In this document: positions 5,951 to 26,462 of the stretch, piece by piece
Numbering within the stretch: position 1 is the first letter of the stretch
Layout: every line of letters starts with the position of its first letter
Source: Vibrio algivorus
GTDB lineage: Bacteria; Pseudomonadota; Gammaproteobacteria; Enterobacterales; Vibrionaceae
DNA length: 32,000 nucleotides
Assembly (NCBI GenBank): GCA_002218005.2
Contig: AP018679.1
Strand: one strand, 5' to 3'
Notes under the pieces: model-generated
Database searches by the model: none
Seen by the model: the letters and a program-made list of their open reading frames with translations, nothing else
What the model was told of the DNA's origin: nothing
Translations under genes and position numbers: made by a program

Positions 5951-6622
5951 TTACAGTAAGCGGATAACTCCTTGATACAACTGGAATAAGGCGTAAGCCA
6001 GTAAAGCTGCGGCGCCAAGACGTCTAAAAAGCAAAGATTGCACTAGTTGATTGAACTGAGTCGCACTCACTCCAACCGCTAACATCAATGGTAGGGTACC
6101 TAAGCCGAATGCCAGCATGATCAAAGCGCCATTTAGAGAATTCCCAGCCGCTGCCGACCAAGTTAGCATAGAATAGACTAGGCCACATGGAAGCCATCCC
6201 CAAATGAAACCAAATGGAATAGCGTAAATAGGATGCTTAATAGGAAGTAGCTTTTGACCGAATGGTGCAATATATTTCCAAAGCTTTTGACCTACTTTTT
6301 CTATCCATATCAGCCCATTCCACCATTGCCCAATATATAAAGCCAATAACAACATGAATACAGCAGATAAAAGACGTAACCAATTGAGTGGGGAGTTGAT
6401 TCCAGAGTAGGACGAAATGGTTGAAATGGAGCCACCAATTATCGCTCCAATTAAAGCATAACTAGATAAGCGACCCATGTTATAAAAAAGAGGATTTAAC
6501 CATTGTCTCTTTGTTGACACTTGCCCTAGGTTCATTAAAGAAGCGATACCACCACACATTCCCATGCAGTGGCCAGCGCCTAATAAACCGATTAAAAAAG
6601 CCGCTAACCAATCTGAACTCAT
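5951..6622 (-). CDS. DsbD_2/TauE-like polytopic membrane protein associated with the cco assembly cluster
   Basis: 223 aa and very hydrophobic, with the motif GAGHCMGMCGG near the N-terminus. Its start overlaps the ccoS stop (ATGA). Confidence 0.75.
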   Translation of the reverse strand: MSSDWLAAFLIGLLGAGHCMGMCGGIASLMNLGQVSTKRQWLNPLFYNMGRLSSYALIGAIIGGSISTISSYSGINSPLNWLRLLSAVFMLLLALYIGQWWNGLIWIEKVGQKLWKYIAPFGQKLLPIKHPIYAIPFGFIWGWLPCGLVYSMLTWSAAAGNSLNGALIMLAFGLGTLPLMLAVGVSATQFNQLVQSLLFRRLGAAALLAYALFQLYQGVIRLL

Positions 6623-13808: not shown

Positions 13809-13836
13809 ATTTAACATAATATACGTAATGCGCACT
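13809..13836. other. dif: dif, the 28-bp XerCD chromosome dimer resolution site (host XerD arm and 6-bp central region joined to a phage-derived XerC arm)
   Basis: ATTTAACATAA TATACG TAATGCGCACT. Its reverse complement, AGTGCGCATTA CGTATA TTATGTTAAAT, is near-identical to E. coli and V. cholerae dif as I remember them. It lies exactly at the left prophage boundary. Confidence 0.9.
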
Positions 13837-13837
13837 A

Positions 13838-15274
13838 TTAGATTGGTAAAATTGCATCCATATTGGGTAAGTCATTTCTCGATTTATTTGGTTGCATTGA
13901 ATTAGCCAGGTCTGTGATTGGATTGTTAACCTGGTCGCCAAAATCATTTGGTGTTTTTCTCATGTCACACGTCAGGAACTTACGAACGCCAGCTGTATTC
14001 ATTTCAACTAAACAATAATCTAAAACCTTAAATTGATAACCCATCTTTTCTAGCATTGAGTTATAAACATAAGATTCAGAGCCATCAGTCATTGTTTGTT
14101 TAAATACGATTGTTGGTATCACTTTTGTATCTGTTATTTTCAAACTGATGCCGCCTACATATACATTGGTAACATCAAATGGCCAAAGTTCAGGAACAGT
14201 GTTTACGCTGCGATTATTAAAAAACGGCTCACCACTCTCAGACAAAAGGCGACTATCATGAACATCATCAATCTGTACATTACGTATCTTAGAATCGGTT
14301 TTATCCATTGGTAAAACTTGGTTATTGGTTTGGCCAGTTTGGTTAACGGTTTGATTAGAATTGATATCCTGTGTTGAATCATCAGAATTATAACGTTGAT
14401 ACGCATCGATGCCCCCATAAATGACATAAAGAATTGAACAAAGCCCTAGCAACATTACTAAGACAAATTTGAAATTTGATAATGGACTAGAAGCAAGTCC
14501 TGATTTTGTTGTTTTGCCCGTTACTGTTGATTTATAAAGAAGATGAACCGCAAGAGGAACTTTAACCCGTCTACACTCTTCAGGCTTTGGACTGTTAAAG
14601 CTCGTTGCGTTTGGGTCATGTTCATACAATCTAGGTTTGCGCTTTGTGAAAAAAAACGAATCTTTAGATTTATGATGTATGGCAACCTCAGCACATGAAC
14701 GAACTTCAGTAGATAACTTTTTAATATTGGGTGTAACGAAAGTAATATCCCAGTTAAAGTGACGGTGTCTTGATATCGATTCTTCAAACGTTGGAGGTAA
14801 TCGAATGAGCCCATTATCATCAAATAAAGTTTCCCCTGAATCATCAATATCAATAGTTGATTCATCTGGTTTATAAGCCTCTAAAACACGGTTATAAAAA
14901 TCTGGATACCAGTCAGGCAAACCCTCTTTAAACTTTTCCAAACCTTGATATGTATTCTTAGCCATATCAAAGCCGACCGTTTTAGAATATATGTCCTGAC
15001 ATTCATCAATGATCATATAAGCGCCCATAGGCATCCAGTTGTAGAAGTTCTGCCACATATAACGGCCAGATTCAGTAAGCGAATAGATTTTTATAATTTT
15101 GGCTGATGGTGGAAATCGCTCACCTAGACGTTTTTCAATAGTTTCAACACTTTCCATACCTTGTATGTTTGTGACAACAACACGACCATTTCTAAGCGCA
15201 GGTAGTAAATCAAACCATACAGCGGTAGCTGACTTGTAAGAACCATTGGCACCATGACGAATTTTAACAGCCAT
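13838..15274 (-). CDS. Zot/pI-family phage assembly ATPase (gene I equivalent)
   Basis: Walker A-like GANGSYKS, Walker B MIIDEC, and WDITFVTP (compare Ff pI WDIIFLVQ). A central TM helix (FKFVLVMLLGLCSILYVIYGGI) is followed by an approximately 190-aa periplasmic C-terminal part. The stop codon lies 1 nt from the XerC arm. Confidence 0.88.
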   Translation of the reverse strand: MAVKIRHGANGSYKSATAVWFDLLPALRNGRVVVTNIQGMESVETIEKRLGERFPPSAKIIKIYSLTESGRYMWQNFYNWMPMGAYMIIDECQDIYSKTVGFDMAKNTYQGLEKFKEGLPDWYPDFYNRVLEAYKPDESTIDIDDSGETLFDDNGLIRLPPTFEESISRHRHFNWDITFVTPNIKKLSTEVRSCAEVAIHHKSKDSFFFTKRKPRLYEHDPNATSFNSPKPEECRRVKVPLAVHLLYKSTVTGKTTKSGLASSPLSNFKFVLVMLLGLCSILYVIYGGIDAYQRYNSDDSTQDINSNQTVNQTGQTNNQVLPMDKTDSKIRNVQIDDVHDSRLLSESGEPFFNNRSVNTVPELWPFDVTNVYVGGISLKITDTKVIPTIVFKQTMTDGSESYVYNSMLEKMGYQFKVLDYCLVEMNTAGVRKFLTCDMRKTPNDFGDQVNNPITDLANSMQPNKSRNDLPNMDAILPI

Positions 15275-15276
15275 AA

Positions 15277-15684
15277 TTAAGACCCCATGAAATCTAGAAC
15301 AAATCGAGTAACCATTGCTTCAACGATTCGGGTTAAACCAACAAAAATTCCATATTGATTCATCAAGCCTTTTTGCTGTGTTGAAAGACCTGAAAAAGCA
15401 TCATTAAGAAGTGAATCGAGGGAAAGATTTTGCATAAGTGAAATAGCTACACCATAAGCAAATTGAATAGATTCAAGCTGTAATTTGAGCTTAATAATCA
15501 CGCAATATTCAATGATGTAAGCGAACATTTGTTGAAAAAATGTAGGGGCATAACTGAAAAAATCACCAACATAATCCCCAATATCAACAAAATAACCAAT
15601 GATTGAGTTTTCTTCTTCTGGAGTAGCTGCATAAGTGCCAGACGAAAAAAACAAAAGTAAAAACGGAATAAAAAGGATCTTCAT
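15277..15684 (-). CDS. minor coat protein, gene VI positional equivalent (hydrophobic)
   Basis: 135-aa hydrophobic protein between the gIII-like and gI-like genes, separated by only 1-2 nt intergenic gaps. The assignment rests on position and hydrophobicity only. Confidence 0.6.
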   Translation of the reverse strand: MKILFIPFLLLFFSSGTYAATPEEENSIIGYFVDIGDYVGDFFSYAPTFFQQMFAYIIEYCVIIKLKLQLESIQFAYGVAISLMQNLSLDSLLNDAFSGLSTQQKGLMNQYGIFVGLTRIVEAMVTRFVLDFMGS

Positions 15685-15685
15685 C

Positions 15686-17089
15686 TTATCGTCTCCTTAC
15701 GATAATAATTGAAAAGGCAACCAGTGAACAAAGAGCAATGATTGCGGTAGAAATTAAGCTTGAATTATCAGACCAATATGAATTAGAAGTGCTAACAGTC
15801 CCCCATCTACCAGATAGAGTTATATTTTCATCAGAATAAGAACCTCCAGAGAAAGACGGAGCAATGTTTAAGTCAGTTTTAAACTGATTTATTTTGTCTT
15901 GAATCTGTTGAGTTAAATCATCTTTTTTCTGAGATAACTCGGCGAACTTTGAAGAATCAAAGACAGTAGAAAAATGATTCGATTGGGTGAAGTCCGGCAA
16001 ATCTCCAAACGGTGTTTTATTACAGTCTGGGTATTCTGGATTTTTATCACAAAATGATTTATTCATTTCATTTTCTATATTGTCTAAGTGCTTATTGGTT
16101 TGCGTAGTTCCTGAGAGTTGTTGACCAAGTTTCTTATTGATTTCTGTCTGTTGACCAAGTTGAGCTTTATAAAGTTTATTGTTCTGGTCAGATTTGGAAT
16201 CATAATTAGTAATAAACTCTTTCATTTTATGATTCATATTTTCAAGGTGTTGATTGGTAATAACCGCTTCTTTGTAAAGTGCATTATCCCCCTCGGTTAA
16301 ATTTGGGTTATCGCTAAGACTTGATGAATCTGGATTTTGATTAGGGTCATCCGTGAAAGGTGTATCAGAGTTATTACATAAATCGATACCTAATTCACAA
16401 GGATTAGGGTTTGAATTTAAATCATCAGGATTAGTAGATTCTTCTGGAATTTCTTCAGGCGGTGTTTCTGGAGGTAAAGCACACTCTTCATTTTCAGGAT
16501 TACAAATAGGTGTTTCTGGATTAGTTTCAGATTCACAAGTTAAACCCTGTATGCAATCTTTTTTATCATAATTACATGAAGTACTAACATCAGGTGAATT
16601 ATTTGACTCATTATCAACACAAGACCAATTAAAAACAGTTTCATAAAAAGAACTATTAGGATTGTTTAATTGACATGAATATTGTTCATTTTGAAATTGT
16701 TTTTGAATAGATGAATCGGAACAAAAAGTTGGTTCAATCTGACATCGACCATCAGAAGTTTCAACTGGATGAGTAGCAGGACAACCAGAAAAAGGAGAAA
16801 AAGAACCGTCATAGGCTGCTATTCTCACATTAGCAGAAGTAGCTTTGCACCAAATGCCATTCGAAACAACTTGAGGATTATCCAAACAAAGTTCTGTATC
16901 AAGTGAAGATAAATAGGGTAAACATAATGAATGTGGTTTGGATGAAAGATAAGTATCAAAATAAACAGGTTCACTTTTATAAAACGTACAACGGGCTTTT
17001 AAAATTACTTTATCAACTGTTTCAGCCTTAACGGGAATCGTATAAATATTAGAAAATACAAAAACGAAAAATAATAAAATCCATTTCAT
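15686..17089 (-). CDS. pIII-like minor coat / host-adsorption protein
   Basis: Signal peptide, a Cys-rich N-terminal domain, a Pro/Glu/Asn/Asp-rich low-complexity linker, and a C-terminal TM anchor ending in RRR (LISTAIIALCSLVAFSIIIVRRR). It occupies the gene III position. Confidence 0.8.
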   Translation of the reverse strand: MKWILLFFVFVFSNIYTIPVKAETVDKVILKARCTFYKSEPVYFDTYLSSKPHSLCLPYLSSLDTELCLDNPQVVSNGIWCKATSANVRIAAYDGSFSPFSGCPATHPVETSDGRCQIEPTFCSDSSIQKQFQNEQYSCQLNNPNSSFYETVFNWSCVDNESNNSPDVSTSCNYDKKDCIQGLTCESETNPETPICNPENEECALPPETPPEEIPEESTNPDDLNSNPNPCELGIDLCNNSDTPFTDDPNQNPDSSSLSDNPNLTEGDNALYKEAVITNQHLENMNHKMKEFITNYDSKSDQNNKLYKAQLGQQTEINKKLGQQLSGTTQTNKHLDNIENEMNKSFCDKNPEYPDCNKTPFGDLPDFTQSNHFSTVFDSSKFAELSQKKDDLTQQIQDKINQFKTDLNIAPSFSGGSYSDENITLSGRWGTVSTSNSYWSDNSSLISTAIIALCSLVAFSIIIVRRR

Positions 17090-17095
17090 AAGATC

Positions 17096-17119
17096 AAAAA
17101 AAGGGGCAATTAAGCCCCC
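17096..17119 (-). terminator. rho-independent terminator between the coat-gene block and the gIII-like gene
   Basis: The minus strand reads GGGGC TTAATT GCCCC followed by T7. This corresponds to the Ff terminator after gene VIII. Confidence 0.7.
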
Positions 17120-17136
17120 TCTCCTATAGTTAAAAA

Positions 17137-17229
17137 TTAATGTGTTTGAATGCCTGAAACAAAACCATAAATAAAGCTCATGGAGGATGAGATACCAAAA
17201 ATGATTTCTACAGGCATTGACCCCATCAT
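17137..17229 (-). CDS. 30-aa hydrophobic protein (candidate pVII/pIX-like minor coat protein; below the ORF-track cutoff)
   Basis: Hand translation: MMGSMPVEIIFGISSSMSFIYGFVSGIQTH. The ATG abuts the gVIII stop (TAAATG) and the ORF is followed by the terminator. Size and hydrophobicity resemble Ff pVII/pIX. Confidence 0.45.
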   Translation of the reverse strand: MMGSMPVEIIFGISSSMSFIYGFVSGIQTH

Positions 17230-17442
17230 TTACTTATTTAACCAACGAATAAGAAGACCCGCACCAAAGCCGATTGCAGCAACCGAAATAACGCCAGCAA
17301 CTACAAGAGTATAGTTTGCAGAAGAATCTGTAACCGCAGCATTAATATCAGTAGCGTAATCAGCAGCGAACGCAGTAGATGAAGCAGCAATAGAAGAAAC
17401 TACAGCACCAGTTTTTAGAGCAATGTTTTTAAAAGTTTTCAT
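17230..17442 (-). CDS. major coat protein (pVIII-type)
   Basis: Signal peptide ending AFA/AD. The approximately 44-aa mature part has an acidic N-terminus, a hydrophobic core (LVVAGVISVAAIGFGAGLLI) and a basic C-terminus (RWLNK). Confidence 0.88.
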   Translation of the reverse strand: MKTFKNIALKTGAVVSSIAASSTAFAADYATDINAAVTDSSANYTLVVAGVISVAAIGFGAGLLIRWLNK

Positions 17443-17466
17443 ATCAATATCCTATAAATAAAAAAA

Positions 17467-17670
17467 TTAAAGTTTGCTCATCCATCGTACGACTCGGCCA
17501 GCTCCATGACCAACGACAAACGAAAGTAAAAGATACCCAGAAACTTCCAGATATAGAGCTTTATCAAACACAAGGTTTGTTTGGGGAATGTCAGACGGTT
17601 CAAGCAAAATATAACCCTGACAAGTGTCATAGGTATCAGTTGTGACCTGACCATCTAACAAACATTTCAT
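17467..17670 (-). CDS. small phage protein with a C-terminal TM helix and basic tail (candidate minor coat protein)
   Basis: 67 aa. The C-terminus GYLLLSFVVGHGAGRVVRWMSKL resembles the coat-protein C-terminus. Its start overlaps the upstream stop (ATGA). Confidence 0.6.
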   Translation of the reverse strand: MKCLLDGQVTTDTYDTCQGYILLEPSDIPQTNLVFDKALYLEVSGYLLLSFVVGHGAGRVVRWMSKL

Positions 17671-17861
17671 ATATGACTCTCAAAAATTCCTAGTTCACGA
17701 ACACGCTTTAAATCAAGGACTTCGTTTGAACCGCAATCTTCACAAGAAATATCACCAATTAAAGAGCAGTCATTATCAGACCTAAATAACTGCCAATTGA
17801 TAGAAGATGAATCACAACAAGTACAAACTAAATCATCATCCTTTAAAGCAAATAAAGTCAT
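17667..17861 (-). CDS. Cys-rich 64-aa phage protein (zinc-ribbon-like CxCC...C...CxxC)
   Basis: MTLFALKDDDLVCTCCDSS...CSLIGDISCEDCGS. It is translationally coupled on both sides (TAATG with gV, ATGA with the next gene). Confidence 0.6.
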   Translation of the reverse strand: MTLFALKDDDLVCTCCDSSSINWQLFRSDNDCSLIGDISCEDCGSNEVLDLKRVRELGIFESHI

Positions 17862-18160
17862 TACGAAACCTTACTAAGTTGAGCCTGATTTACAGGAACT
17901 AATTTTAAGTTACGGTCGAACTCTAAGCGGTCGAACTGTCCAACCTTGAAAGAATCTTGGGTAAAATAATATTTACCCTCAGTGTATGCAGGTTGCCCTT
18001 CCTCAAGTGGAAGACGAAACTCAACAGGGAATTTACCGCCAGTATGAGCGTATGCAACTTGAGAATATAATTTCATCGCAGCTCGTTTATCATTTGCAGG
18101 CAGTTCGCGAACGTCTACCACTTCATTTTCTTTAAATACTTCGATAATTAATTGATTCAT
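17861..18160 (-). CDS. ssDNA-binding protein, Ff gene V homologue
   Basis: LEEGQPAYTEGKYYFTQDSFKVGQFDRLEFDRNLKLVP aligns with M13 gpV ...LDEGQPAYAPGLYTVHLSSFKVGQFGSLMIDRLRLVP (from memory). It is located directly after the replication gene. Confidence 0.88.
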   Translation of the reverse strand: MNQLIIEVFKENEVVDVRELPANDKRAAMKLYSQVAYAHTGGKFPVEFRLPLEEGQPAYTEGKYYFTQDSFKVGQFDRLEFDRNLKLVPVNQAQLSKVS

Positions 18161-18171
18161 TTTTTAATTCC

Positions 18172-18558
18172 TTATGCCACTAAGTGGATTACATTTTCAT
18201 CAAAACCATATAAACGGGAAATATCCCCTACTTTCTCTACATAATCAGACGGTCGCTGATTTGCGAAATCTATTTCAATAACTTGAAGTAATGGAACGAC
18301 ATTATCTTTTCCATTGCCTTGTAAATTCTGTAATTGAGCTTTGGAGAAACCCGCCTTAAGCAAAAGATTTAAATTATCGTAAAAAGTACTACTAGAACTA
18401 AAGGTATCTTTAACTGCATTGTAACCATCAGATACCAATGAACGATAAAAACGAAAAACTCTATCGGCCTTTGAATATGACATATTTCCTTTAGGTGTTA
18501 CTTTTACATAAATTGACTTTAAATTTGTATAAACTTCATCATCATTAAATATATTCAT
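18172..18558 (-). CDS. candidate nested gene X-like product (in-frame internal start within gII, 128 aa)
   Basis: Internal ATG at 18558 (Met304, MNIFNDDEV...) is preceded by AAGGGG 6 nt upstream. It aligns with the M13 gene X start (MNIYDDSAV). Confidence 0.45.
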   Translation of the reverse strand: MNIFNDDEVYTNLKSIYVKVTPKGNMSYSKADRVFRFYRSLVSDGYNAVKDTFSSSSTFYDNLNLLLKAGFSKAQLQNLQGNGKDNVVPLLQVIEIDFANQRPSDYVEKVGDISRLYGFDENVIHLVA

Positions 18559-19467
18559 CTTTTGCCCCTTAAGCGCATCTAACAACGGGCTGTACGCTCT
18601 TAACCATATATCTTTAATTAAACAGGATTTGTTTTCTTTTTCATATTTAACTTGATACTTAATAGCATCAATTAATTTTTTAGGTACTTCAAATTCATCT
18701 AAATATCTACGCTTTGCACTAGCTTCAAACCTAACAAGATTGCGAGCATAATTAATTAAAAAAGGGTCACTCATTACATCAATAACTTTATCGTATTCTT
18801 TTGAACCTTTTTCTTTAAGTGAGCGCAATTGATCTAATTGTCTTTTGAATTCAAAATATTTTAAATAAACCTTTCTATCAACATGGCGTGAATTCTTAGA
18901 AAAATATGCGGTAGTCTCATACTCATTACGAACACTAGATCGCATTTGTTTATTTGAAATATTCTTAAGCTGATTAATAACCTGCTTTGACATATCTTCA
19001 TTTTTAACACGAGCAGAATAAGTGCAATCGACACAATCCAAAGTAGCGTTTGGGATATCTAGCATGTTATAGAAATCAGAATAAGCATTAAGCAAGCACA
19101 TCATCATTTCAGTTGAACCATTCAAAATTGACGTTGAACCATAAACATTATGGCCCTGAATAATTTTGGCCGGACTCGCTTTTAACTCTACACAAGCATC
19201 ACGAAGCGGAGTTCCTTGAAAAATCTTAAACGCCATACCAGTAAAGGAAGTAGCTAAACTCTGATAAGGATGACGCAAGTCAGTAACTTCAAAACCGTCA
19301 TTGCGTTCGTTGCCAGTAAAATGAACAGATTTAGCTTCAAGACCTACACCACGAGAAGAACATTCCTTCAAATCAACATAACGAACGCACTGACCAGTAG
19401 CCGTCTGTTGAGTTTGAAGAAGATATTCTTCTTTAAACGGTATAGAGATTTTAAGCATATCAATCAT
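18172..19467 (-). CDS. rolling-circle replication initiator, Ff gene II homologue
   Basis: MIDML start, plus ...FTGMAFKIFQG...VELKASPAKIIQGHNVYG...LVRFEASAKRRYL...MNIFNDDEV...VVPLLQVIEIDFANQRP. These parallel M13 gpII (MIDMLVLRLPF..., VEIKASPAKVLQGHNVFG, LVRFEARIKTRYL, MNIYDDSAV, from memory). Confidence 0.9.
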   Translation of the reverse strand: MIDMLKISIPFKEEYLLQTQQTATGQCVRYVDLKECSSRGVGLEAKSVHFTGNERNDGFEVTDLRHPYQSLATSFTGMAFKIFQGTPLRDACVELKASPAKIIQGHNVYGSTSILNGSTEMMMCLLNAYSDFYNMLDIPNATLDCVDCTYSARVKNEDMSKQVINQLKNISNKQMRSSVRNEYETTAYFSKNSRHVDRKVYLKYFEFKRQLDQLRSLKEKGSKEYDKVIDVMSDPFLINYARNLVRFEASAKRRYLDEFEVPKKLIDAIKYQVKYEKENKSCLIKDIWLRAYSPLLDALKGQKMNIFNDDEVYTNLKSIYVKVTPKGNMSYSKADRVFRFYRSLVSDGYNAVKDTFSSSSTFYDNLNLLLKAGFSKAQLQNLQGNGKDNVVPLLQVIEIDFANQRPSDYVEKVGDISRLYGFDENVIHLVA

Positions 19468-19480
19468 AAAGGTAACTTTG

Positions 19481-19555
19481 TCACAAGTGATTTAGATTAT
19501 AAATTAATACATCATCACATGTGACAATGCAAGAAAAGATACAAATAACTTGTGA
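19481..19555. promoter_or_regulatory. divergent promoter/operator region: three copies of the palindromic motif TCACA(A/T)GTGA
   Basis: TCACAAGTGA at 19481-19490, the perfect palindrome TCACATGTGA at 19515-19524, and ACTTGTGA at 19548-19555 (reverse orientation, 8/10). Spacing is 34 and about 31 bp. A minus-strand TATAAT lies at 19496-19501, between the first two sites. Confidence 0.5.
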
Positions 19556-19599
19556 TGAAGTTACAATGTTATGAAGTGACTCGAAATTAAGGAGGCAAA

Positions 19600-19758
19600 A
19601 TGCCCACTCTAAGACTTGATGAAAAAAGATGGCGAGAGATTGAAAAAAAAGCCGTTGATATGACTATAAAGACACAAAAACCTGTAACGGTACCAGAAGT
19701 AATAAAGGCCGTACTAGATAAATGCTTAAAAGAATTGAAACCAGAAGATCTAAAGTAA
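19600..19758 (+). CDS. 52-aa ribbon-helix-helix-like transcriptional regulator, divergent from gII (RstR-position analogue; below the ORF-track cutoff)
   Basis: AAGGAGG SD 4 nt upstream of the ATG. Hand translation: MPTLRLDEKRWREIEKKAVDMTIKTQKPVTVPEVIKAVLDKCLKELKPEDLK, a short N-terminal strand followed by two helices. It is the only plus-strand gene in the phage and lies between the origin and gII. Confidence 0.6.
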   Translation: MPTLRLDEKRWREIEKKAVDMTIKTQKPVTVPEVIKAVLDKCLKELKPEDLK

Positions 19759-19775
19759 ATTCCGAAATCCGGACA

Positions 19776-19804
19776 AGAGTACACTATTAAAGATAGTGTA
19801 CTCT
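19776..19804 (-). other. plus-strand replication origin hairpin with an Ff-type gpII nick motif
   Basis: The minus strand reads AGAGTACACTAT CTTTA ATAGTGTACTCT, followed by TGTCCGGATTTCGGA. The core CTTTAATAGTGtACTCTTGT matches the f1/M13 origin GTTCTTTAATAGTGGACTCTTGTTCC (from memory). The stem is 12 bp and perfect. Confidence 0.75.
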
Positions 19805-20037
19805 CCCTGCCTCCTTGCTCCTCCGCGCTCAGCTTTCGCTTGTGCGTCGCAATCGTCCGGTCGAGATAAAAATCATTTTAAAAGAGAAAAGAATTCTAGA
19901 GGATGAAGGTTTTTTCATCTAACTGGTATGTCATTTTTTTAACATACCCAGCTTTGGTGCGGTTAGTGACGGATGTCCTCCGAGCACTATGAGAATGTAA
20001 TTACTATGCAGTAGCTTTAGAATTCGGGTGGGCTGAT

Positions 20038-20149
20038 AGTTCGCATTACGGCCATTATGCTAAAGGCGCACTTCGTGCGGTCGCCAGTGCTGCGCAATGG
20101 TACTGACGACCACGCTTTCAACATAATGCCAGACTACGTAATGCGCACT
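20038..20149. other. attP region at the copy 1/copy 2 junction: two inverted dif-like sites able to fold into a forked hairpin
   Basis: Site A (20038-20065) is AGTTCGCATTA CGGCCA TTATGCTAAAG. Site B (20116-20149) has the reverse complement AGTGCGCATTA CGTAGTCTGGCA TTATGTTGAAA. The arms are complementary, the central regions differ (6 versus 12 nt), and the inner stem CGTGCGGTCG/CGACCACG extends the hairpin. Confidence 0.8.
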
Positions 20150-20150
20150 A

Positions 20151-21587
20151 TTAGATTGGTAAAATTGCATCCATATTGGGTAAGTCATTTCTCGATTTAT
20201 TTGGTTGCATTGAATTAGCCAGGTCTGTGATTGGATTGTTAACCTGGTCGCCAAAATCATTTGGTGTTTTTCTCATGTCACACGTCAGGAACTTACGAAC
20301 GCCAGCTGTATTCATTTCAACTAAACAATAATCTAAAACCTTAAATTGATAACCCATCTTTTCTAGCATTGAGTTATAAACATAAGATTCAGAGCCATCA
20401 GTCATTGTTTGTTTAAATACGATTGTTGGTATCACTTTTGTATCTGTTATTTTCAAACTGATGCCGCCTACATATACATTGGTAACATCAAATGGCCAAA
20501 GTTCAGGAACAGTGTTTACGCTGCGATTATTAAAAAACGGCTCACCACTCTCAGACAAAAGGCGACTATCATGAACATCATCAATCTGTACATTACGTAT
20601 CTTAGAATCGGTTTTATCCATTGGTAAAACTTGGTTATTGGTTTGGCCAGTTTGGTTAACGGTTTGATTAGAATTGATATCCTGTGTTGAATCATCAGAA
20701 TTATAACGTTGATACGCATCGATGCCCCCATAAATGACATAAAGAATTGAACAAAGCCCTAGCAACATTACTAAGACAAATTTGAAATTTGATAATGGAC
20801 TAGAAGCAAGTCCTGATTTTGTTGTTTTGCCCGTTACTGTTGATTTATAAAGAAGATGAACCGCAAGAGGAACTTTAACCCGTCTACACTCTTCAGGCTT
20901 TGGACTGTTAAAGCTCGTTGCGTTTGGGTCATGTTCATACAATCTAGGTTTGCGCTTTGTGAAAAAAAACGAATCTTTAGATTTATGATGTATGGCAACC
21001 TCAGCACATGAACGAACTTCAGTAGATAACTTTTTAATATTGGGTGTAACGAAAGTAATATCCCAGTTAAAGTGACGGTGTCTTGATATCGATTCTTCAA
21101 ACGTTGGAGGTAATCGAATGAGCCCATTATCATCAAATAAAGTTTCCCCTGAATCATCAATATCAATAGTTGATTCATCTGGTTTATAAGCCTCTAAAAC
21201 ACGGTTATAAAAATCTGGATACCAGTCAGGCAAACCCTCTTTAAACTTTTCCAAACCTTGATATGTATTCTTAGCCATATCAAAGCCGACCGTTTTAGAA
21301 TATATGTCCTGACATTCATCAATGATCATATAAGCGCCCATAGGCATCCAGTTGTAGAAGTTCTGCCACATATAACGGCCAGATTCAGTAAGCGAATAGA
21401 TTTTTATAATTTTGGCTGATGGTGGAAATCGCTCACCTAGACGTTTTTCAATAGTTTCAACACTTTCCATACCTTGTATGTTTGTGACAACAACACGACC
21501 ATTTCTAAGCGCAGGTAGTAAATCAAACCATACAGCGGTAGCTGACTTGTAAGAACCATTGGCACCATGACGAATTTTAACAGCCAT
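20151..21587 (-). CDS. Zot/pI-family phage assembly ATPase (copy 2)
   Basis: Translation identical to 13838..15274. Confidence 0.88.
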   Translation of the reverse strand: MAVKIRHGANGSYKSATAVWFDLLPALRNGRVVVTNIQGMESVETIEKRLGERFPPSAKIIKIYSLTESGRYMWQNFYNWMPMGAYMIIDECQDIYSKTVGFDMAKNTYQGLEKFKEGLPDWYPDFYNRVLEAYKPDESTIDIDDSGETLFDDNGLIRLPPTFEESISRHRHFNWDITFVTPNIKKLSTEVRSCAEVAIHHKSKDSFFFTKRKPRLYEHDPNATSFNSPKPEECRRVKVPLAVHLLYKSTVTGKTTKSGLASSPLSNFKFVLVMLLGLCSILYVIYGGIDAYQRYNSDDSTQDINSNQTVNQTGQTNNQVLPMDKTDSKIRNVQIDDVHDSRLLSESGEPFFNNRSVNTVPELWPFDVTNVYVGGISLKITDTKVIPTIVFKQTMTDGSESYVYNSMLEKMGYQFKVLDYCLVEMNTAGVRKFLTCDMRKTPNDFGDQVNNPITDLANSMQPNKSRNDLPNMDAILPI

Positions 21588-21589
21588 AA

Positions 21590-21997
21590 TTAAGACCCCA
21601 TGAAATCTAGAACAAATCGAGTAACCATTGCTTCAACGATTCGGGTTAAACCAACAAAAATTCCATATTGATTCATCAAGCCTTTTTGCTGTGTTGAAAG
21701 ACCTGAAAAAGCATCATTAAGAAGTGAATCGAGGGAAAGATTTTGCATAAGTGAAATAGCTACACCATAAGCAAATTGAATAGATTCAAGCTGTAATTTG
21801 AGCTTAATAATCACGCAATATTCAATGATGTAAGCGAACATTTGTTGAAAAAATGTAGGGGCATAACTGAAAAAATCACCAACATAATCCCCAATATCAA
21901 CAAAATAACCAATGATTGAGTTTTCTTCTTCTGGAGTAGCTGCATAAGTGCCAGACGAAAAAAACAAAAGTAAAAACGGAATAAAAAGGATCTTCAT
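21590..21997 (-). CDS. gene VI-position minor coat protein (copy 2)
   Basis: Translation identical to 15277..15684. Confidence 0.6.
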   Translation of the reverse strand: MKILFIPFLLLFFSSGTYAATPEEENSIIGYFVDIGDYVGDFFSYAPTFFQQMFAYIIEYCVIIKLKLQLESIQFAYGVAISLMQNLSLDSLLNDAFSGLSTQQKGLMNQYGIFVGLTRIVEAMVTRFVLDFMGS

Positions 21998-21998
21998 C

Positions 21999-23402
21999 TT
22001 ATCGTCTCCTTACGATAATAATTGAAAAGGCAACCAGTGAACAAAGAGCAATGATTGCGGTAGAAATTAAGCTTGAATTATCAGACCAATATGAATTAGA
22101 AGTGCTAACAGTCCCCCATCTACCAGATAGAGTTATATTTTCATCAGAATAAGAACCTCCAGAGAAAGACGGAGCAATGTTTAAGTCAGTTTTAAACTGA
22201 TTTATTTTGTCTTGAATCTGTTGAGTTAAATCATCTTTTTTCTGAGATAACTCGGCGAACTTTGAAGAATCAAAGACAGTAGAAAAATGATTCGATTGGG
22301 TGAAGTCCGGCAAATCTCCAAACGGTGTTTTATTACAGTCTGGGTATTCTGGATTTTTATCACAAAATGATTTATTCATTTCATTTTCTATATTGTCTAA
22401 GTGCTTATTGGTTTGCGTAGTTCCTGAGAGTTGTTGACCAAGTTTCTTATTGATTTCTGTCTGTTGACCAAGTTGAGCTTTATAAAGTTTATTGTTCTGG
22501 TCAGATTTGGAATCATAATTAGTAATAAACTCTTTCATTTTATGATTCATATTTTCAAGGTGTTGATTGGTAATAACCGCTTCTTTGTAAAGTGCATTAT
22601 CCCCCTCGGTTAAATTTGGGTTATCGCTAAGACTTGATGAATCTGGATTTTGATTAGGGTCATCCGTGAAAGGTGTATCAGAGTTATTACATAAATCGAT
22701 ACCTAATTCACAAGGATTAGGGTTTGAATTTAAATCATCAGGATTAGTAGATTCTTCTGGAATTTCTTCAGGCGGTGTTTCTGGAGGTAAAGCACACTCT
22801 TCATTTTCAGGATTACAAATAGGTGTTTCTGGATTAGTTTCAGATTCACAAGTTAAACCCTGTATGCAATCTTTTTTATCATAATTACATGAAGTACTAA
22901 CATCAGGTGAATTATTTGACTCATTATCAACACAAGACCAATTAAAAACAGTTTCATAAAAAGAACTATTAGGATTGTTTAATTGACATGAATATTGTTC
23001 ATTTTGAAATTGTTTTTGAATAGATGAATCGGAACAAAAAGTTGGTTCAATCTGACATCGACCATCAGAAGTTTCAACTGGATGAGTAGCAGGACAACCA
23101 GAAAAAGGAGAAAAAGAACCGTCATAGGCTGCTATTCTCACATTAGCAGAAGTAGCTTTGCACCAAATGCCATTCGAAACAACTTGAGGATTATCCAAAC
23201 AAAGTTCTGTATCAAGTGAAGATAAATAGGGTAAACATAATGAATGTGGTTTGGATGAAAGATAAGTATCAAAATAAACAGGTTCACTTTTATAAAACGT
23301 ACAACGGGCTTTTAAAATTACTTTATCAACTGTTTCAGCCTTAACGGGAATCGTATAAATATTAGAAAATACAAAAACGAAAAATAATAAAATCCATTTC
23401 AT
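21999..23402 (-). CDS. pIII-like adsorption protein (copy 2)
   Basis: Translation identical to 15686..17089. Confidence 0.8.
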   Translation of the reverse strand: MKWILLFFVFVFSNIYTIPVKAETVDKVILKARCTFYKSEPVYFDTYLSSKPHSLCLPYLSSLDTELCLDNPQVVSNGIWCKATSANVRIAAYDGSFSPFSGCPATHPVETSDGRCQIEPTFCSDSSIQKQFQNEQYSCQLNNPNSSFYETVFNWSCVDNESNNSPDVSTSCNYDKKDCIQGLTCESETNPETPICNPENEECALPPETPPEEIPEESTNPDDLNSNPNPCELGIDLCNNSDTPFTDDPNQNPDSSSLSDNPNLTEGDNALYKEAVITNQHLENMNHKMKEFITNYDSKSDQNNKLYKAQLGQQTEINKKLGQQLSGTTQTNKHLDNIENEMNKSFCDKNPEYPDCNKTPFGDLPDFTQSNHFSTVFDSSKFAELSQKKDDLTQQIQDKINQFKTDLNIAPSFSGGSYSDENITLSGRWGTVSTSNSYWSDNSSLISTAIIALCSLVAFSIIIVRRR

Positions 23403-23408
23403 AAGATC

Positions 23409-23432
23409 AAAAAAAGGGGCAATTAAGCCCCC
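23409..23432 (-). terminator. phage internal terminator (copy 2)
   Basis: Same sequence as 17096..17119. Confidence 0.7.
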
Positions 23433-23449
23433 TCTCCTATAGTTAAAAA

Positions 23450-23542
23450 TTAATGTGTTTGAATGCCTGAAACAAAACCATAAATAAAGCTCATGGAGGA
23501 TGAGATACCAAAAATGATTTCTACAGGCATTGACCCCATCAT
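23450..23542 (-). CDS. 30-aa hydrophobic protein (copy 2)
   Basis: Same sequence as 17137..17229. Confidence 0.45.
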   Translation of the reverse strand: MMGSMPVEIIFGISSSMSFIYGFVSGIQTH

Positions 23543-23755
23543 TTACTTATTTAACCAACGAATAAGAAGACCCGCACCAAAGCCGATTGCAGCAACCGAA
23601 ATAACGCCAGCAACTACAAGAGTATAGTTTGCAGAAGAATCTGTAACCGCAGCATTAATATCAGTAGCGTAATCAGCAGCGAACGCAGTAGATGAAGCAG
23701 CAATAGAAGAAACTACAGCACCAGTTTTTAGAGCAATGTTTTTAAAAGTTTTCAT
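23543..23755 (-). CDS. major coat protein (copy 2)
   Basis: Translation identical to 17230..17442. Confidence 0.88.
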   Translation of the reverse strand: MKTFKNIALKTGAVVSSIAASSTAFAADYATDINAAVTDSSANYTLVVAGVISVAAIGFGAGLLIRWLNK

Positions 23756-23779
23756 ATCAATATCCTATAAATAAAAAAA

Positions 23780-23983
23780 TTAAAGTTTGCTCATCCATCG
23801 TACGACTCGGCCAGCTCCATGACCAACGACAAACGAAAGTAAAAGATACCCAGAAACTTCCAGATATAGAGCTTTATCAAACACAAGGTTTGTTTGGGGA
23901 ATGTCAGACGGTTCAAGCAAAATATAACCCTGACAAGTGTCATAGGTATCAGTTGTGACCTGACCATCTAACAAACATTTCAT
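23780..23983 (-). CDS. 67-aa TM-tailed phage protein (copy 2)
   Basis: Translation identical to 17467..17670. Confidence 0.6.
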   Translation of the reverse strand: MKCLLDGQVTTDTYDTCQGYILLEPSDIPQTNLVFDKALYLEVSGYLLLSFVVGHGAGRVVRWMSKL

Positions 23984-24174
23984 ATATGACTCTCAAAAAT
24001 TCCTAGTTCACGAACACGCTTTAAATCAAGGACTTCGTTTGAACCGCAATCTTCACAAGAAATATCACCAATTAAAGAGCAGTCATTATCAGACCTAAAT
24101 AACTGCCAATTGATAGAAGATGAATCACAACAAGTACAAACTAAATCATCATCCTTTAAAGCAAATAAAGTCAT
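23980..24174 (-). CDS. Cys-rich 64-aa phage protein (copy 2)
   Basis: Translation identical to 17667..17861. Confidence 0.6.
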   Translation of the reverse strand: MTLFALKDDDLVCTCCDSSSINWQLFRSDNDCSLIGDISCEDCGSNEVLDLKRVRELGIFESHI

Positions 24175-24473
24175 TACGAAACCTTACTAAGTTGAGCCTG
24201 ATTTACAGGAACTAATTTTAAGTTACGGTCGAACTCTAAGCGGTCGAACTGTCCAACCTTGAAAGAATCTTGGGTAAAATAATATTTACCCTCAGTGTAT
24301 GCAGGTTGCCCTTCCTCAAGTGGAAGACGAAACTCAACAGGGAATTTACCGCCAGTATGAGCGTATGCAACTTGAGAATATAATTTCATCGCAGCTCGTT
24401 TATCATTTGCAGGCAGTTCGCGAACGTCTACCACTTCATTTTCTTTAAATACTTCGATAATTAATTGATTCAT
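24174..24473 (-). CDS. gene V-like ssDNA-binding protein (copy 2)
   Basis: Translation identical to 17861..18160. Confidence 0.88.
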   Translation of the reverse strand: MNQLIIEVFKENEVVDVRELPANDKRAAMKLYSQVAYAHTGGKFPVEFRLPLEEGQPAYTEGKYYFTQDSFKVGQFDRLEFDRNLKLVPVNQAQLSKVS

Positions 24474-24484
24474 TTTTTAATTCC

Positions 24485-25780
24485 TTATGCCACTAAGTGG
24501 ATTACATTTTCATCAAAACCATATAAACGGGAAATATCCCCTACTTTCTCTACATAATCAGACGGTCGCTGATTTGCGAAATCTATTTCAATAACTTGAA
24601 GTAATGGAACGACATTATCTTTTCCATTGCCTTGTAAATTCTGTAATTGAGCTTTGGAGAAACCCGCCTTAAGCAAAAGATTTAAATTATCGTAAAAAGT
24701 ACTACTAGAACTAAAGGTATCTTTAACTGCATTGTAACCATCAGATACCAATGAACGATAAAAACGAAAAACTCTATCGGCCTTTGAATATGACATATTT
24801 CCTTTAGGTGTTACTTTTACATAAATTGACTTTAAATTTGTATAAACTTCATCATCATTAAATATATTCATCTTTTGCCCCTTAAGCGCATCTAACAACG
24901 GGCTGTACGCTCTTAACCATATATCTTTAATTAAACAGGATTTGTTTTCTTTTTCATATTTAACTTGATACTTAATAGCATCAATTAATTTTTTAGGTAC
25001 TTCAAATTCATCTAAATATCTACGCTTTGCACTAGCTTCAAACCTAACAAGATTGCGAGCATAATTAATTAAAAAAGGGTCACTCATTACATCAATAACT
25101 TTATCGTATTCTTTTGAACCTTTTTCTTTAAGTGAGCGCAATTGATCTAATTGTCTTTTGAATTCAAAATATTTTAAATAAACCTTTCTATCAACATGGC
25201 GTGAATTCTTAGAAAAATATGCGGTAGTCTCATACTCATTACGAACACTAGATCGCATTTGTTTATTTGAAATATTCTTAAGCTGATTAATAACCTGCTT
25301 TGACATATCTTCATTTTTAACACGAGCAGAATAAGTGCAATCGACACAATCCAAAGTAGCGTTTGGGATATCTAGCATGTTATAGAAATCAGAATAAGCA
25401 TTAAGCAAGCACATCATCATTTCAGTTGAACCATTCAAAATTGACGTTGAACCATAAACATTATGGCCCTGAATAATTTTGGCCGGACTCGCTTTTAACT
25501 CTACACAAGCATCACGAAGCGGAGTTCCTTGAAAAATCTTAAACGCCATACCAGTAAAGGAAGTAGCTAAACTCTGATAAGGATGACGCAAGTCAGTAAC
25601 TTCAAAACCGTCATTGCGTTCGTTGCCAGTAAAATGAACAGATTTAGCTTCAAGACCTACACCACGAGAAGAACATTCCTTCAAATCAACATAACGAACG
25701 CACTGACCAGTAGCCGTCTGTTGAGTTTGAAGAAGATATTCTTCTTTAAACGGTATAGAGATTTTAAGCATATCAATCAT
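24485..25780 (-). CDS. gene II-like replication initiator (copy 2; nested gX-like start at 24871)
   Basis: Translation identical to 18172..19467. Confidence 0.9.
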   Translation of the reverse strand: MIDMLKISIPFKEEYLLQTQQTATGQCVRYVDLKECSSRGVGLEAKSVHFTGNERNDGFEVTDLRHPYQSLATSFTGMAFKIFQGTPLRDACVELKASPAKIIQGHNVYGSTSILNGSTEMMMCLLNAYSDFYNMLDIPNATLDCVDCTYSARVKNEDMSKQVINQLKNISNKQMRSSVRNEYETTAYFSKNSRHVDRKVYLKYFEFKRQLDQLRSLKEKGSKEYDKVIDVMSDPFLINYARNLVRFEASAKRRYLDEFEVPKKLIDAIKYQVKYEKENKSCLIKDIWLRAYSPLLDALKGQKMNIFNDDEVYTNLKSIYVKVTPKGNMSYSKADRVFRFYRSLVSDGYNAVKDTFSSSSTFYDNLNLLLKAGFSKAQLQNLQGNGKDNVVPLLQVIEIDFANQRPSDYVEKVGDISRLYGFDENVIHLVA

Positions 25781-25793
25781 AAAGGTAACTTTG

Positions 25794-25868
25794 TCACAAG
25801 TGATTTAGATTATAAATTAATACATCATCACATGTGACAATGCAAGAAAAGATACAAATAACTTGTGA
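25794..25868. promoter_or_regulatory. operator/promoter region (copy 2)
   Basis: Same sequence as 19481..19555. Confidence 0.5.
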
Positions 25869-25912
25869 TGAAGTTACAATGTTATGAAGTGACTCGAAAT
25901 TAAGGAGGCAAA

Positions 25913-26071
25913 ATGCCCACTCTAAGACTTGATGAAAAAAGATGGCGAGAGATTGAAAAAAAAGCCGTTGATATGACTATAAAGACACAAAAACCTGTAA
26001 CGGTACCAGAAGTAATAAAGGCCGTACTAGATAAATGCTTAAAAGAATTGAAACCAGAAGATCTAAAGTAA
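25913..26071 (+). CDS. 52-aa RHH-like regulator (copy 2)
   Basis: Same sequence as 19600..19758. Confidence 0.6.
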   Translation: MPTLRLDEKRWREIEKKAVDMTIKTQKPVTVPEVIKAVLDKCLKELKPEDLK

Positions 26072-26088
26072 ATTCCGAAATCCGGACA

Positions 26089-26117
26089 AGAGTACACTAT
26101 TAAAGATAGTGTACTCT
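26089..26117 (-). other. plus-strand origin hairpin (copy 2)
   Basis: Same sequence as 19776..19804. Confidence 0.75.
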
Positions 26118-26350
26118 CCCTGCCTCCTTGCTCCTCCGCGCTCAGCTTTCGCTTGTGCGTCGCAATCGTCCGGTCGAGATAAAAATCATTTTAAAAGAGA
26201 AAAGAATTCTAGAGGATGAAGGTTTTTTCATCTAACTGGTATGTCATTTTTTTAACATACCCAGCTTTGGTGCGGTTAGTGACGGATGTCCTCCGAGCAC
26301 TATGAGAATGTAATTACTATGCAGTAGCTTTAGAATTCGGGTGGGCTGAT

Positions 26351-26462
26351 AGTTCGCATTACGGCCATTATGCTAAAGGCGCACTTCGTGCGGTCGCCAG
26401 TGCTGCGCAATGGTACTGACGACCACGCTTTCAACATAATGCCAGACTACGTAATACGCACT
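26351..26462. other. attP-derived region and right prophage/host junction (phage XerD-like arm, 12-bp central region, host XerC arm)
   Basis: 26429-26462 reads TTTCAACATAA TGCCAGACTACG TAATACGCACT. The XerC arm carries A at 26456 where the other two copies carry G. Sequence to the right (AAAGTTGTAGG...) is unrelated to the phage. Confidence 0.8.

Follow-up and report, generated by a model that had tools for sequence, protein, structure and literature searches.

A probable Ff/IKe-type plus-strand origin in a tandem filamentous prophage at the dif site of Vibrio algivorus

In the filamentous phage fd, the nick of the gene II protein (gpII) separates nucleotides 5781 and 5782; it falls within the hairpin A1 loop, and the gpII-binding repeats beta, gamma and delta lie 3′ of this hairpin (PMC11765958). 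For the Vibrio phage CTXphi, it was shown that attP is masked in its duplex form and that the integrated phage is not excised; an upstream and a downstream origin together with the initiator RstA are necessary and sufficient for the formation of circles (PMC4439123, PMC8265649). Tandem, dif-integrated Vibrio inoviruses are already known, and so is the combination of an IKe-like phage with a tandem array at dif (UPphi901; PMC7307601). According to a survey of Vibrio inoviruses, the so-called CTX-II inoviruses have a regulator gene and zot at their termini and measure 6.7 ± 0.7 kb, and 95% of them occur as tandem arrays; the passages of this survey that were searched contain no description of replication origins or initiator families (PMC12715192). 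Here, we have analysed a 32,000-nt stretch of contig AP018679.1 of Vibrio algivorus (assembly GCA_002218005.2), hereafter referred to as the window, for which a first-pass annotation had proposed an Ff-type plus-strand origin of 50 nt. It is very likely that this element represents the core plus-strand origin, a homologue of Ff/IKe domain A, of a 6.3-kb phage that resides in two tandem copies at the dif site of V. algivorus. As such, it is very probably a clear new example of a textbook origin and not a new kind of element.

The element, AGAGTACACTATCTTTAATAGTGTACTCTTGTCCGGATTTCGGAATTTAC, is a direct read of the window's minus-strand letters between 19804 and 19755, and on re-reading these letters were exactly as first written down. 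It is laid out as AGAGTACACTAT-CTTTA-ATAGTGTACTCT-TGTCCGGATTTCGGAATTTAC, and a second, identical 50-nt copy is found at 26117 to 26068, with an offset of 6,313 nt. The first-pass annotation had given the f1 nick motif and claimed a single mismatch to it. Both proved correct upon alignment to the M13 record V00604, the origin of which reads ...GGAGTCCACGTTCTTTAATAGTGGACTCTTGTTCCAAACTGGAACAAC, as 19 of the 20 positions of the core CTTTAATAGTGTACTCTTGT are equal and the sole change is G to T. This change is accompanied by the complementary C to A change in the left arm, so that the stem pair is preserved. When the window was scanned for the M13 20-mer with up to three mismatches, just two sites were detected, while 0.01 were expected based on 100 shuffles. 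Folding of the origin region as single-stranded DNA (ssDNA) yielded a 12-bp hairpin with the 5-nt loop CTTTA plus a 4-bp hairpin with the 5-nt loop GATTT. The folding energy of this structure was −13.7 kcal/mol (z = −6.5), and none of 200 shuffled sequences was equally stable.

The first of these two structures, nick hairpin 1 (AGAGTACACTAT-CTTTA-ATAGTGTACTCT, with its 12-bp stem), extends over 19776..19804 in copy 1 and, with identical sequence at the 6,313-nt offset, over 26089..26117 in copy 2, the latter being the predicted start for chromosomal synthesis; both are on the minus strand. It is homologous to the origin hairpins of M13 and of IKe, where the homologous segment is annotated as 'viral-strand origin stem loop' (X02139), and the alignment to the f1, M13 and IKe origins that had been proposed as a check did not refute the motif. 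The second structure, an inverted repeat that we refer to as IR2 (TCCG-GATTT-CGGA), is located at 19761..19773 in copy 1 and, identically, at 26074..26086 in copy 2, again on the minus strand and at the position of the beta/gamma gpII-binding repeats of f1. Alignment to the fd/f1 nick places the predicted nick of the phage initiator, pII, at CTTT^AATA on the minus strand, between 19789 (T) and 19788 (A), which is the same place to which it had previously been assigned by analogy. By homology, the predicted minus-strand nick of copy 2 lies between 26102 and 26101, 6,313 nt from that of copy 1. The origin motif shares its strand, the minus strand of the window, with the genes of the phage, and the predicted nick is located 322 nt upstream of the start of pII.

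The origin element was also found in M13, IKe, the Pseudomonas phages 42-1 and NEU2023, the Acinetobacter phage M02 and several saliva or cloacal inoviruses. We aligned 15 origins of Ff, IKe, Pseudomonas, saliva-metagenome and Vibrio-type phages without gaps, leaving out Erwinia phage PEar6, which has no nick hairpin, and an Aeromonas phage origin with a loop that is 1 nt longer. In this alignment, 93% of the cells pair, compared to 33–48% when the 3′ partners were slid by 1–3 columns, and six pairs change on both sides (36 cells versus 11 ± 2.7 in shuffles). The helix of the nick hairpin is paired in 90.6% of the cells and three of its stem pairs covary: pair 8/26 is seen as A-T, C-G and G-C, and two-sided changes also occur in pairs 9/25 and 12/22. 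The IR2 helix is paired in 97.8% of the cells, with three consecutive pairs that each appear in three types, and its 15-nt inverted-repeat frame is present at equal offset in all 15 origins. The earlier assignment of a second inverted repeat to the gpII-binding position is made credible by the conserved offset and the compensatory changes in the 15 origins, even though the repeat comprises 4 bp in the V. algivorus phage. Invariant throughout the alignment are positions T16, T18, A19, A20, T21, G23 and T24, which correspond to T-T^AAT-GT around the nick, and CTTT^AATAGTG of the V. algivorus phage agrees with the conserved nick sequence TYT^AATRGT.

The closest relatives of the phage are represented by eight contigs with a pII that is 66–72% identical, two of which are from named Vibrio, one from a metagenome-assembled genome labelled Flavobacteriaceae and five from IMG/VR. 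All seven of these contigs that reach the site carry the 29-nt hairpin GTACACTATCTTTAATAGTGTACTCTTGT unchanged. Their IR2s differ, and each of them is internally complementary (e.g. GTCTAA-ATA-TTAGAC, GTTTCA-TTT-TGAAAC and GTGCG-GATTT-CGCAC). Furthermore, an exact-pattern scan of IMG/VR revealed at least 120 contigs with the motif. Among the matches listed, IR2 is fully paired at its four inner pairs in 63 of 71 unique origins as opposed to 2 of 284 slid controls, a pII homologue is encoded at 112 of 117 loci, and for 115 of 122 origins the pII gene lies downstream on the same strand, at a median distance of 420 nt. Such a co-occurrence of motif and initiator, combined with covariation, would be the pattern expected of a conserved origin-initiator module, and it speaks strongly against chance, contamination by a vector and a role in transcription alone. 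Judging from these comparisons, the element in all likelihood serves as a functional pII origin. In Erwinia phage PEar6 (MT901800, positions 6150–6608), the pII of which is among the closest, an f1-like upstream flank (GGTGATGGTTCACGTAGTGGGCCATCGCCCTG...) is present and the nick hairpin is missing; the hairpin could have been deleted in nature, the phage could use another origin, or the assembly could have a gap.

The predicted initiator itself, the gene II homologue pII of 431 aa, is encoded on the minus strand at 18172..19467 and, in copy 2, at 24485–25780. It was recognised by its Pfam domains, Phage_CRI (4.6e-53) and G2P_X_C (2.7e-18), and by its identity of 39–41% over 97% of its length to the gpII proteins of IKe (40.6%), the Erwinia PEar phages and Ff. 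In an alignment of ten proteins, the invariant Tyr201 of pII aligns with Tyr197 of Ff gpII, the residue through which gpII reportedly becomes covalently attached at the nick. The protein is listed at NCBI as WP_089124409.1, 'phage/plasmid replication protein, II/X family [Vibrio algivorus]'. An internal in-frame methionine, Met304, is the predicted start of a pX equivalent of 128 aa (18172..18558, minus strand), as it aligns with the start region of Ff pX. Met304 is preceded by AAGGGG, and the Shine-Dalgarno-like AAGGGGCAAAAGATG is located upstream.

With respect to the Ff phages (f1, M13 and fd), the V. algivorus phage shares the Phage_CRI plus G2P_X_C initiator family, the nick motif TCTTT^AATAGTG.ACTCTTGT (19/20) with the nick in the hairpin loop, the second inverted repeat at equal offset, and the intergenic location of the origin on the sense strand, upstream of gene II. 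However, the stem measures 8 bp in Ff and 12 bp in the V. algivorus phage, with one compensated pair, and the IR2 sequences, TGTTCC/GGAACA and TCCG/CGGA, respectively, are unrelated. In addition, the V. algivorus phage has no recognisable AT-rich domain B or IHF region, it carries a divergent small open reading frame (ORF) between the origin and gene II, and it is integrated, whereas Ff is strictly episomal. The extra TAT/ATA stem pairs are shared with IKe, a Lineavirus (GAGTCCACTAT-GTTTA-ATAGTGGACTC). The 15-nt frame of IR2 is also the same in IKe, where it is filled by an inverted repeat of 6 bp that encloses a loop of 3 nt; the IR2 sequence itself differs (GTTGCA/TGCAAC), and IKe, unlike the V. 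algivorus phage, is episomal and encodes its own secretin. We identified no delta-like third repeat 3′ of the nick hairpin in the V. algivorus phage, and the 3′ flank of the origin core is the antisense of the small ORF, a conserved frame of 52 aa.

The conservation of the hairpin with its invariant T-T^AAT-GT leads us to infer that it is the catalytic and termination site. IR2, on the other hand, is likely the binding and specificity element of pII, because it is located where f1 has its beta/gamma repeats. Fitting this division of labour, the gene II proteins of IKe and Ff are not known to be interchangeable, despite nearly identical nick hairpins. Almost every base of the Ff/IKe origin core is kept, although the initiators themselves are down to 30–40% identity, and the adjacent IR2 alone varies. 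A conserved core next to a variable IR2 could be used as a rule for the annotation of origins and for the prediction of initiator specificity in inoviruses, and, with the present element, the origin and the nick can be predicted precisely in a group of filamentous prophages of marine Vibrio. The Vibrio-type motif was not found in print in the literature searched. A megablast search with the complete unit as query returned no match among 50,697 phage records, and apart from the origin core, likeness to known phages was confined to the proteins. The closest deposited phage initiators are about 40% identical, and none of them is from a Vibrio phage.

The prophage occupies 13822..26455 on the minus strand as two identical 6,313-nt copies plus an 8-bp overlap, such that s[13822..20142] = s[20135..26455]. 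The copies are arranged head to tail with a period of 6,313 nt and show 100% identity across 6,321 nt. A regenerated dif with a 6-nt spacer (AGTGCGCATTA-CGTATA-TTATGTTAAAT) is found where the array ends with zot, at 13809..13836 (minus strand). At the other end, at 26429..26462 (minus strand), the junction sequence joins the host XerC arm (AGTGCGTATTA) to the central region of the phage attP. Between the copies and at this far end, the sequence reads AGTGCG(C/T)ATTA-CGTAGTCTGGCA-TTATGTTGAAA, with a 12-nt spacer. A published Vibrio dif-like motif (PMC12715192) matches all three junctions, at 13809 (6-nt spacer), 20116 and 26429 (12-nt spacers). The attP region at the copy-2/copy-1 junction (20037..20150, minus strand) folds as (+) ssDNA into a forked hairpin of ∼110 nt with XerC-arm-like and XerD-arm-like stems. 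About 100 nt of it are homologous to the CTXphi attP (positions 447–560 of record L023), including the half-site with the 12-nt spacer and the loop GTCGTCAGTACCATTGCGC.AGCACTG. These junction features would fit integration at dif via a folded (+) ssDNA attP, after which one end carries a masked site and the opposite end a regenerated dif. In a short-read contig of 6,321 nt (Logan DRR129659), the identical phage is collapsed to one unit plus the 8-bp ATTACGTA overlap. This contig ends exactly at the attP/dif crossover, which is a typical way in which such arrays vanish from assemblies.

The overall layout of each copy, attP - intergenic region - origin - divergent regulator - initiator ... zot, is the same as in CTXphi, and so are the integration at dif, the regeneration of dif at the zot end and the tandem copies with an origin on both sides of the genome. 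In contrast, the CTXphi initiator RstA belongs to Rep_trans (PF02486) and has no detectable similarity to the V. algivorus pII in BLASTP (E = 5.6). There is no sequence relationship to the origin hairpins of CTXphi or to its G^T nick, the intergenic regions align over attP only, and CTXphi replication depends on HU and UvrD. By its sequence, the V. algivorus element is not a CTXphi-type origin. Since attP is CTXphi-like but the origin and initiator are of the Ff type, these modules have different ancestries and, judged by homology, the phage is a mosaic of a CTXphi-like integration site and an Ff-like replication module. Modules of these two kinds can be combined in one phage. The phage also resembles CTX-II (PMC12715192), with regulator and zot termini, no ctxAB, a size of 6.3 kb compared to 6.7 ± 0.7 kb for the class, and a tandem array. 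No XafT homologue stood out among the scanned phage ORFs, a scan that included no search dedicated to it. UPphi901 and other Enterobacterales dif inoviruses are described as closest to IKe/I2-2 and similarly form tandem repeats at dif, in a host clade that differs from that of the V. algivorus phage (PMC7307601); by implication of this closeness, their initiators would be of the gpII type. When we compared the IKe origin region with E. coli chromosomes, seeking the UPphi tandem prophages, only plasmid-labelled records matched. A 53-nt match to the IKe origin core was observed in small E. coli plasmids of 2.1–2.3 kb (H44–H48), while two 'plasmids' of 14.5 and 18.3 kb (H41 and H43) are IKe-like genomes in the form of multimer-sized records.

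The direct-repeat origins are positioned upstream and downstream of one complete genome, on the same strand and 6,313 nt apart, and this arrangement suggests how the element might work. We propose that pII would bind the duplex at the variable IR2 (TCCG-GATTT-CGGA), open the conserved 12-bp hairpin and cut the sense strand at CTTT^AATA (19789/19788) through Tyr201. The resulting 3′-OH would prime rolling-circle synthesis by host enzymes and, once the fork has arrived at the next copy of the hairpin, pII would make a second cut and join the ends of the displaced strand to form a circle. This next copy would be the same origin in the case of the free replicative form. In the chromosome, synthesis would start at the copy-2 nick (26102/26101) and end at the copy-1 origin, giving one unit-length (+) circle. 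Because the phage sense corresponds to the minus strand of the window, synthesis primed at copy 2 would run to lower coordinates, across the attP junction, to the copy-1 origin. The unit-length circle would therewith carry the CTXphi-like attP hairpin of the junction and could form without excision of the prophage. Calculated from the two predicted nicks, the (+) ssDNA product would comprise 6,313 nt (19789..26101, minus strand), with a mechanism modelled on CTXphi (PMC8265649, PMC4439123). The first-pass annotation had anticipated both the length and the attP content of this product. Indeed, the strand, direction and spacing of the two nicks agree with a 6,313-nt origin-to-origin geometry, and the junction that folds as a forked hairpin homologous to the CTXphi attP falls within the product. 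By analogy with CTXphi, we lean towards origin-to-origin synthesis as the main route by which the phage is released. This would make the CTXphi mechanism independent of the RstA family, which would extend known biology without being a surprise.

Several observations speak against this view of the element or of its use in the chromosome. The IR2 of the V. algivorus phage comprises only 4 bp and has an outer G/A mismatch, which is shared by many natural variants, and it is credible only through its conserved position and the covariation in relatives. Nothing in the 3′ flank aligns with the AT-rich, IHF-dependent enhancer of f1, known as domain B. In f1, this domain is dispensable when gpII is altered or abundant, and it is therefore not what defines the core. 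The nick has been positioned by homology to fd, and the two-copy arrangement is that of the assembly as deposited. Furthermore, chromosomal origin-to-origin production has been demonstrated for CTXphi RstA and for no protein of the gpII family, f1 gpII requires a supercoiled substrate (PMC11765958), and the identical 6.3-kb repeats are a possible substrate for the release of circles by homologous recombination.

The last three of these points are also the ones that would favour an alternative, in which the origin is genuine and operates on the free replicative form, while chromosomal release takes place through RecA-dependent recombination between the copies, or not at all. Copies that are 100% identical over 6,321 nt would be an ideal recombination substrate, no initiator of the gpII family has been demonstrated to act on tandem origins in a chromosome, and the need of f1 gpII for supercoiled DNA (PMC11765958) points in the same direction. 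On the other hand, the attP is CTXphi-like and has a 12-nt spacer as duplex, the gene order is as in CTXphi, and for CTXphi two origins and the initiator are necessary and sufficient for circles (PMC8265649). In addition, 95% of the Vibrio inoviruses with rstR and zot termini are present in arrays (PMC12715192), which fits a requirement for a second origin, and related phages have a mosaic boundary at the origin, as expected from hybrids formed at origins. We regard release by recombination, or lack of release, as unlikely, although recombination is a viable route, and retain origin-to-origin synthesis as the preferred one. It is very improbable that the motif is a relic of a defective prophage or an artefact due to contamination with an f1-origin vector or to a mis-assembled duplication. 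The f1 origin is indeed common in vectors, and the short-read assembly of the same phage is a single contig of 6,321 nt. However, the likeness to f1 is limited to ∼30 nt with unrelated flanks, relatives carry the exact Vibrio-type hairpin on seven independent contigs, none of the phage ORFs is disrupted and the copies are identical, and the junctions of the array are precise dif/attP hybrids. Least probable of all is that the palindromes are transcriptional signals, either a repressor operator or a terminator that would act on the convergent 52-aa ORF or on read-through from zot: the stop codon of this ORF (19756-19758) touches IR2, and in a simple scan IR2 with its T-rich tail is terminator-like on the minus strand, but on the plus strand hairpin 1 is followed by CCCTGCC without a T-run, the hairpin with the CTTTAATAGTG motif also occurs in Ff and IKe (annotated there as viral-strand origin in the case of IKe) without such a gene, and the motif tracks the gpII gene at 112 of 117 contigs among the matches listed, whereas the neighbouring regulator varies between the 52-aa ORF and HTH proteins.

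That the origin coincides with a mosaic boundary became apparent from the IMG/VR loci L025–L141. We scored a pair of loci as discordant if identity reached 85% or more in one 150-nt flank and did not exceed 60% in the other; by this measure, 279 + 16 discordant flank pairs, which are not independent of each other, were found at the origin, compared to 0–11 when the pivot was moved by −500 to +800 nt. The divergence begins mostly at +35 from the nick, just 3′ of the second repeat, or at +17, its first base. This pattern could result from the exchange of immunity modules or from nick-mediated hybrid formation, and we consider it a lead and not a result. More tentatively, origins of the gpII type may consist of two parts, a near-universal hairpin for nicking and termination and a freely varying IR2 that serves as the private address of the initiator, so that in mixed dif arrays a pII might start at its own origin and finish at that of its neighbour. 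If true, circles of chimeric or satellite type would arise, and module exchange would have its preferred crossover at the origin. It would also be a possible explanation of how a CTXphi-type attP came to be joined to an Ff-type replication module.

Multiple origins were also encountered in other contigs. L088 carries three gpII-type origins (at 1132, 7329 and 13526) with a spacing of 6,197 nt, in a tandem repeat that is 99.97% identical. L077 (4407 and 11619) and L074 (95 and 5821) each carry two origins with different second repeats, and these represent heterologous arrays. In Vibrio sp. 10N.261.45.E2, a satellite-like unit of 3.7 kb with dif-like bounds (L009, 2728–6441) is located directly upstream of a full filamentous prophage. 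Besides a gpII-type origin, it contains the genes for an HTH regulator and a short pII (369 aa), a homologue of gene V and an ORF of 146 aa. The unit and the neighbouring prophage have the same nick hairpin, but their second repeats differ and their pII proteins are only 23% identical. This unit resembles RS1 beside CTXphi.

The remaining genes of the V. algivorus phage are in line with a complete small filamentous phage on the minus strand, all ORFs of which are intact. The order in each copy is attP - IG (intergenic region) - ori - 52-aa ORF (reverse) - pII/pX - pV - two small ORFs - pVIII - pIII - pVI - Zot/pI. The gene V homologue, encoding an ssDNA-binding protein, is located at 17861..18160 on the minus strand (Pfam Phage_DNA_bind, E = 2.1e-17). 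Besides two small ORFs, the other genes encode a major coat protein (PHROG 1859), a pVI-like protein (DUF2523) and Zot/pI, and a 467-aa ORF occupies the position of gene III. No Rfam families or tRNAs were detected within the window. A promoter-like site upstream of gene II (19496..19525, minus strand) was identified as a consensus match, GTCACA-18-TATAAT, with 10 of 12 positions matching.

The divergent 52-aa ORF between the origin and gene II lies at the position of rstR, on the plus strand at 19600..19758 and, in copy 2, at 25913-26071. Its stop codon (19756-19758) abuts IR2. It matches PHROG 5219 (E = 2e-10), a family of unknown function, and no Pfam family was found for it, even at E = 10. 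Our impression from the amino acid sequence is that it might be a ribbon-helix-helix protein. In relatives, this position is taken by HTH_3 repressors of 112–152 aa; the regulator has thus been swapped, while the core of the origin was kept.

Lastly, we observed a palindrome, GGTATGTYA(5-7)TGACATA(CC), on the minus strand of the window at 19917-19946 and 26230-26259. The same palindrome is present in ig-1 of CTXphi (L023, at 622 and 3347) and in one relative of the V. algivorus phage (L013, at ∼6276). It might serve in packaging, as an origin of the minus strand or in the binding of a protein.

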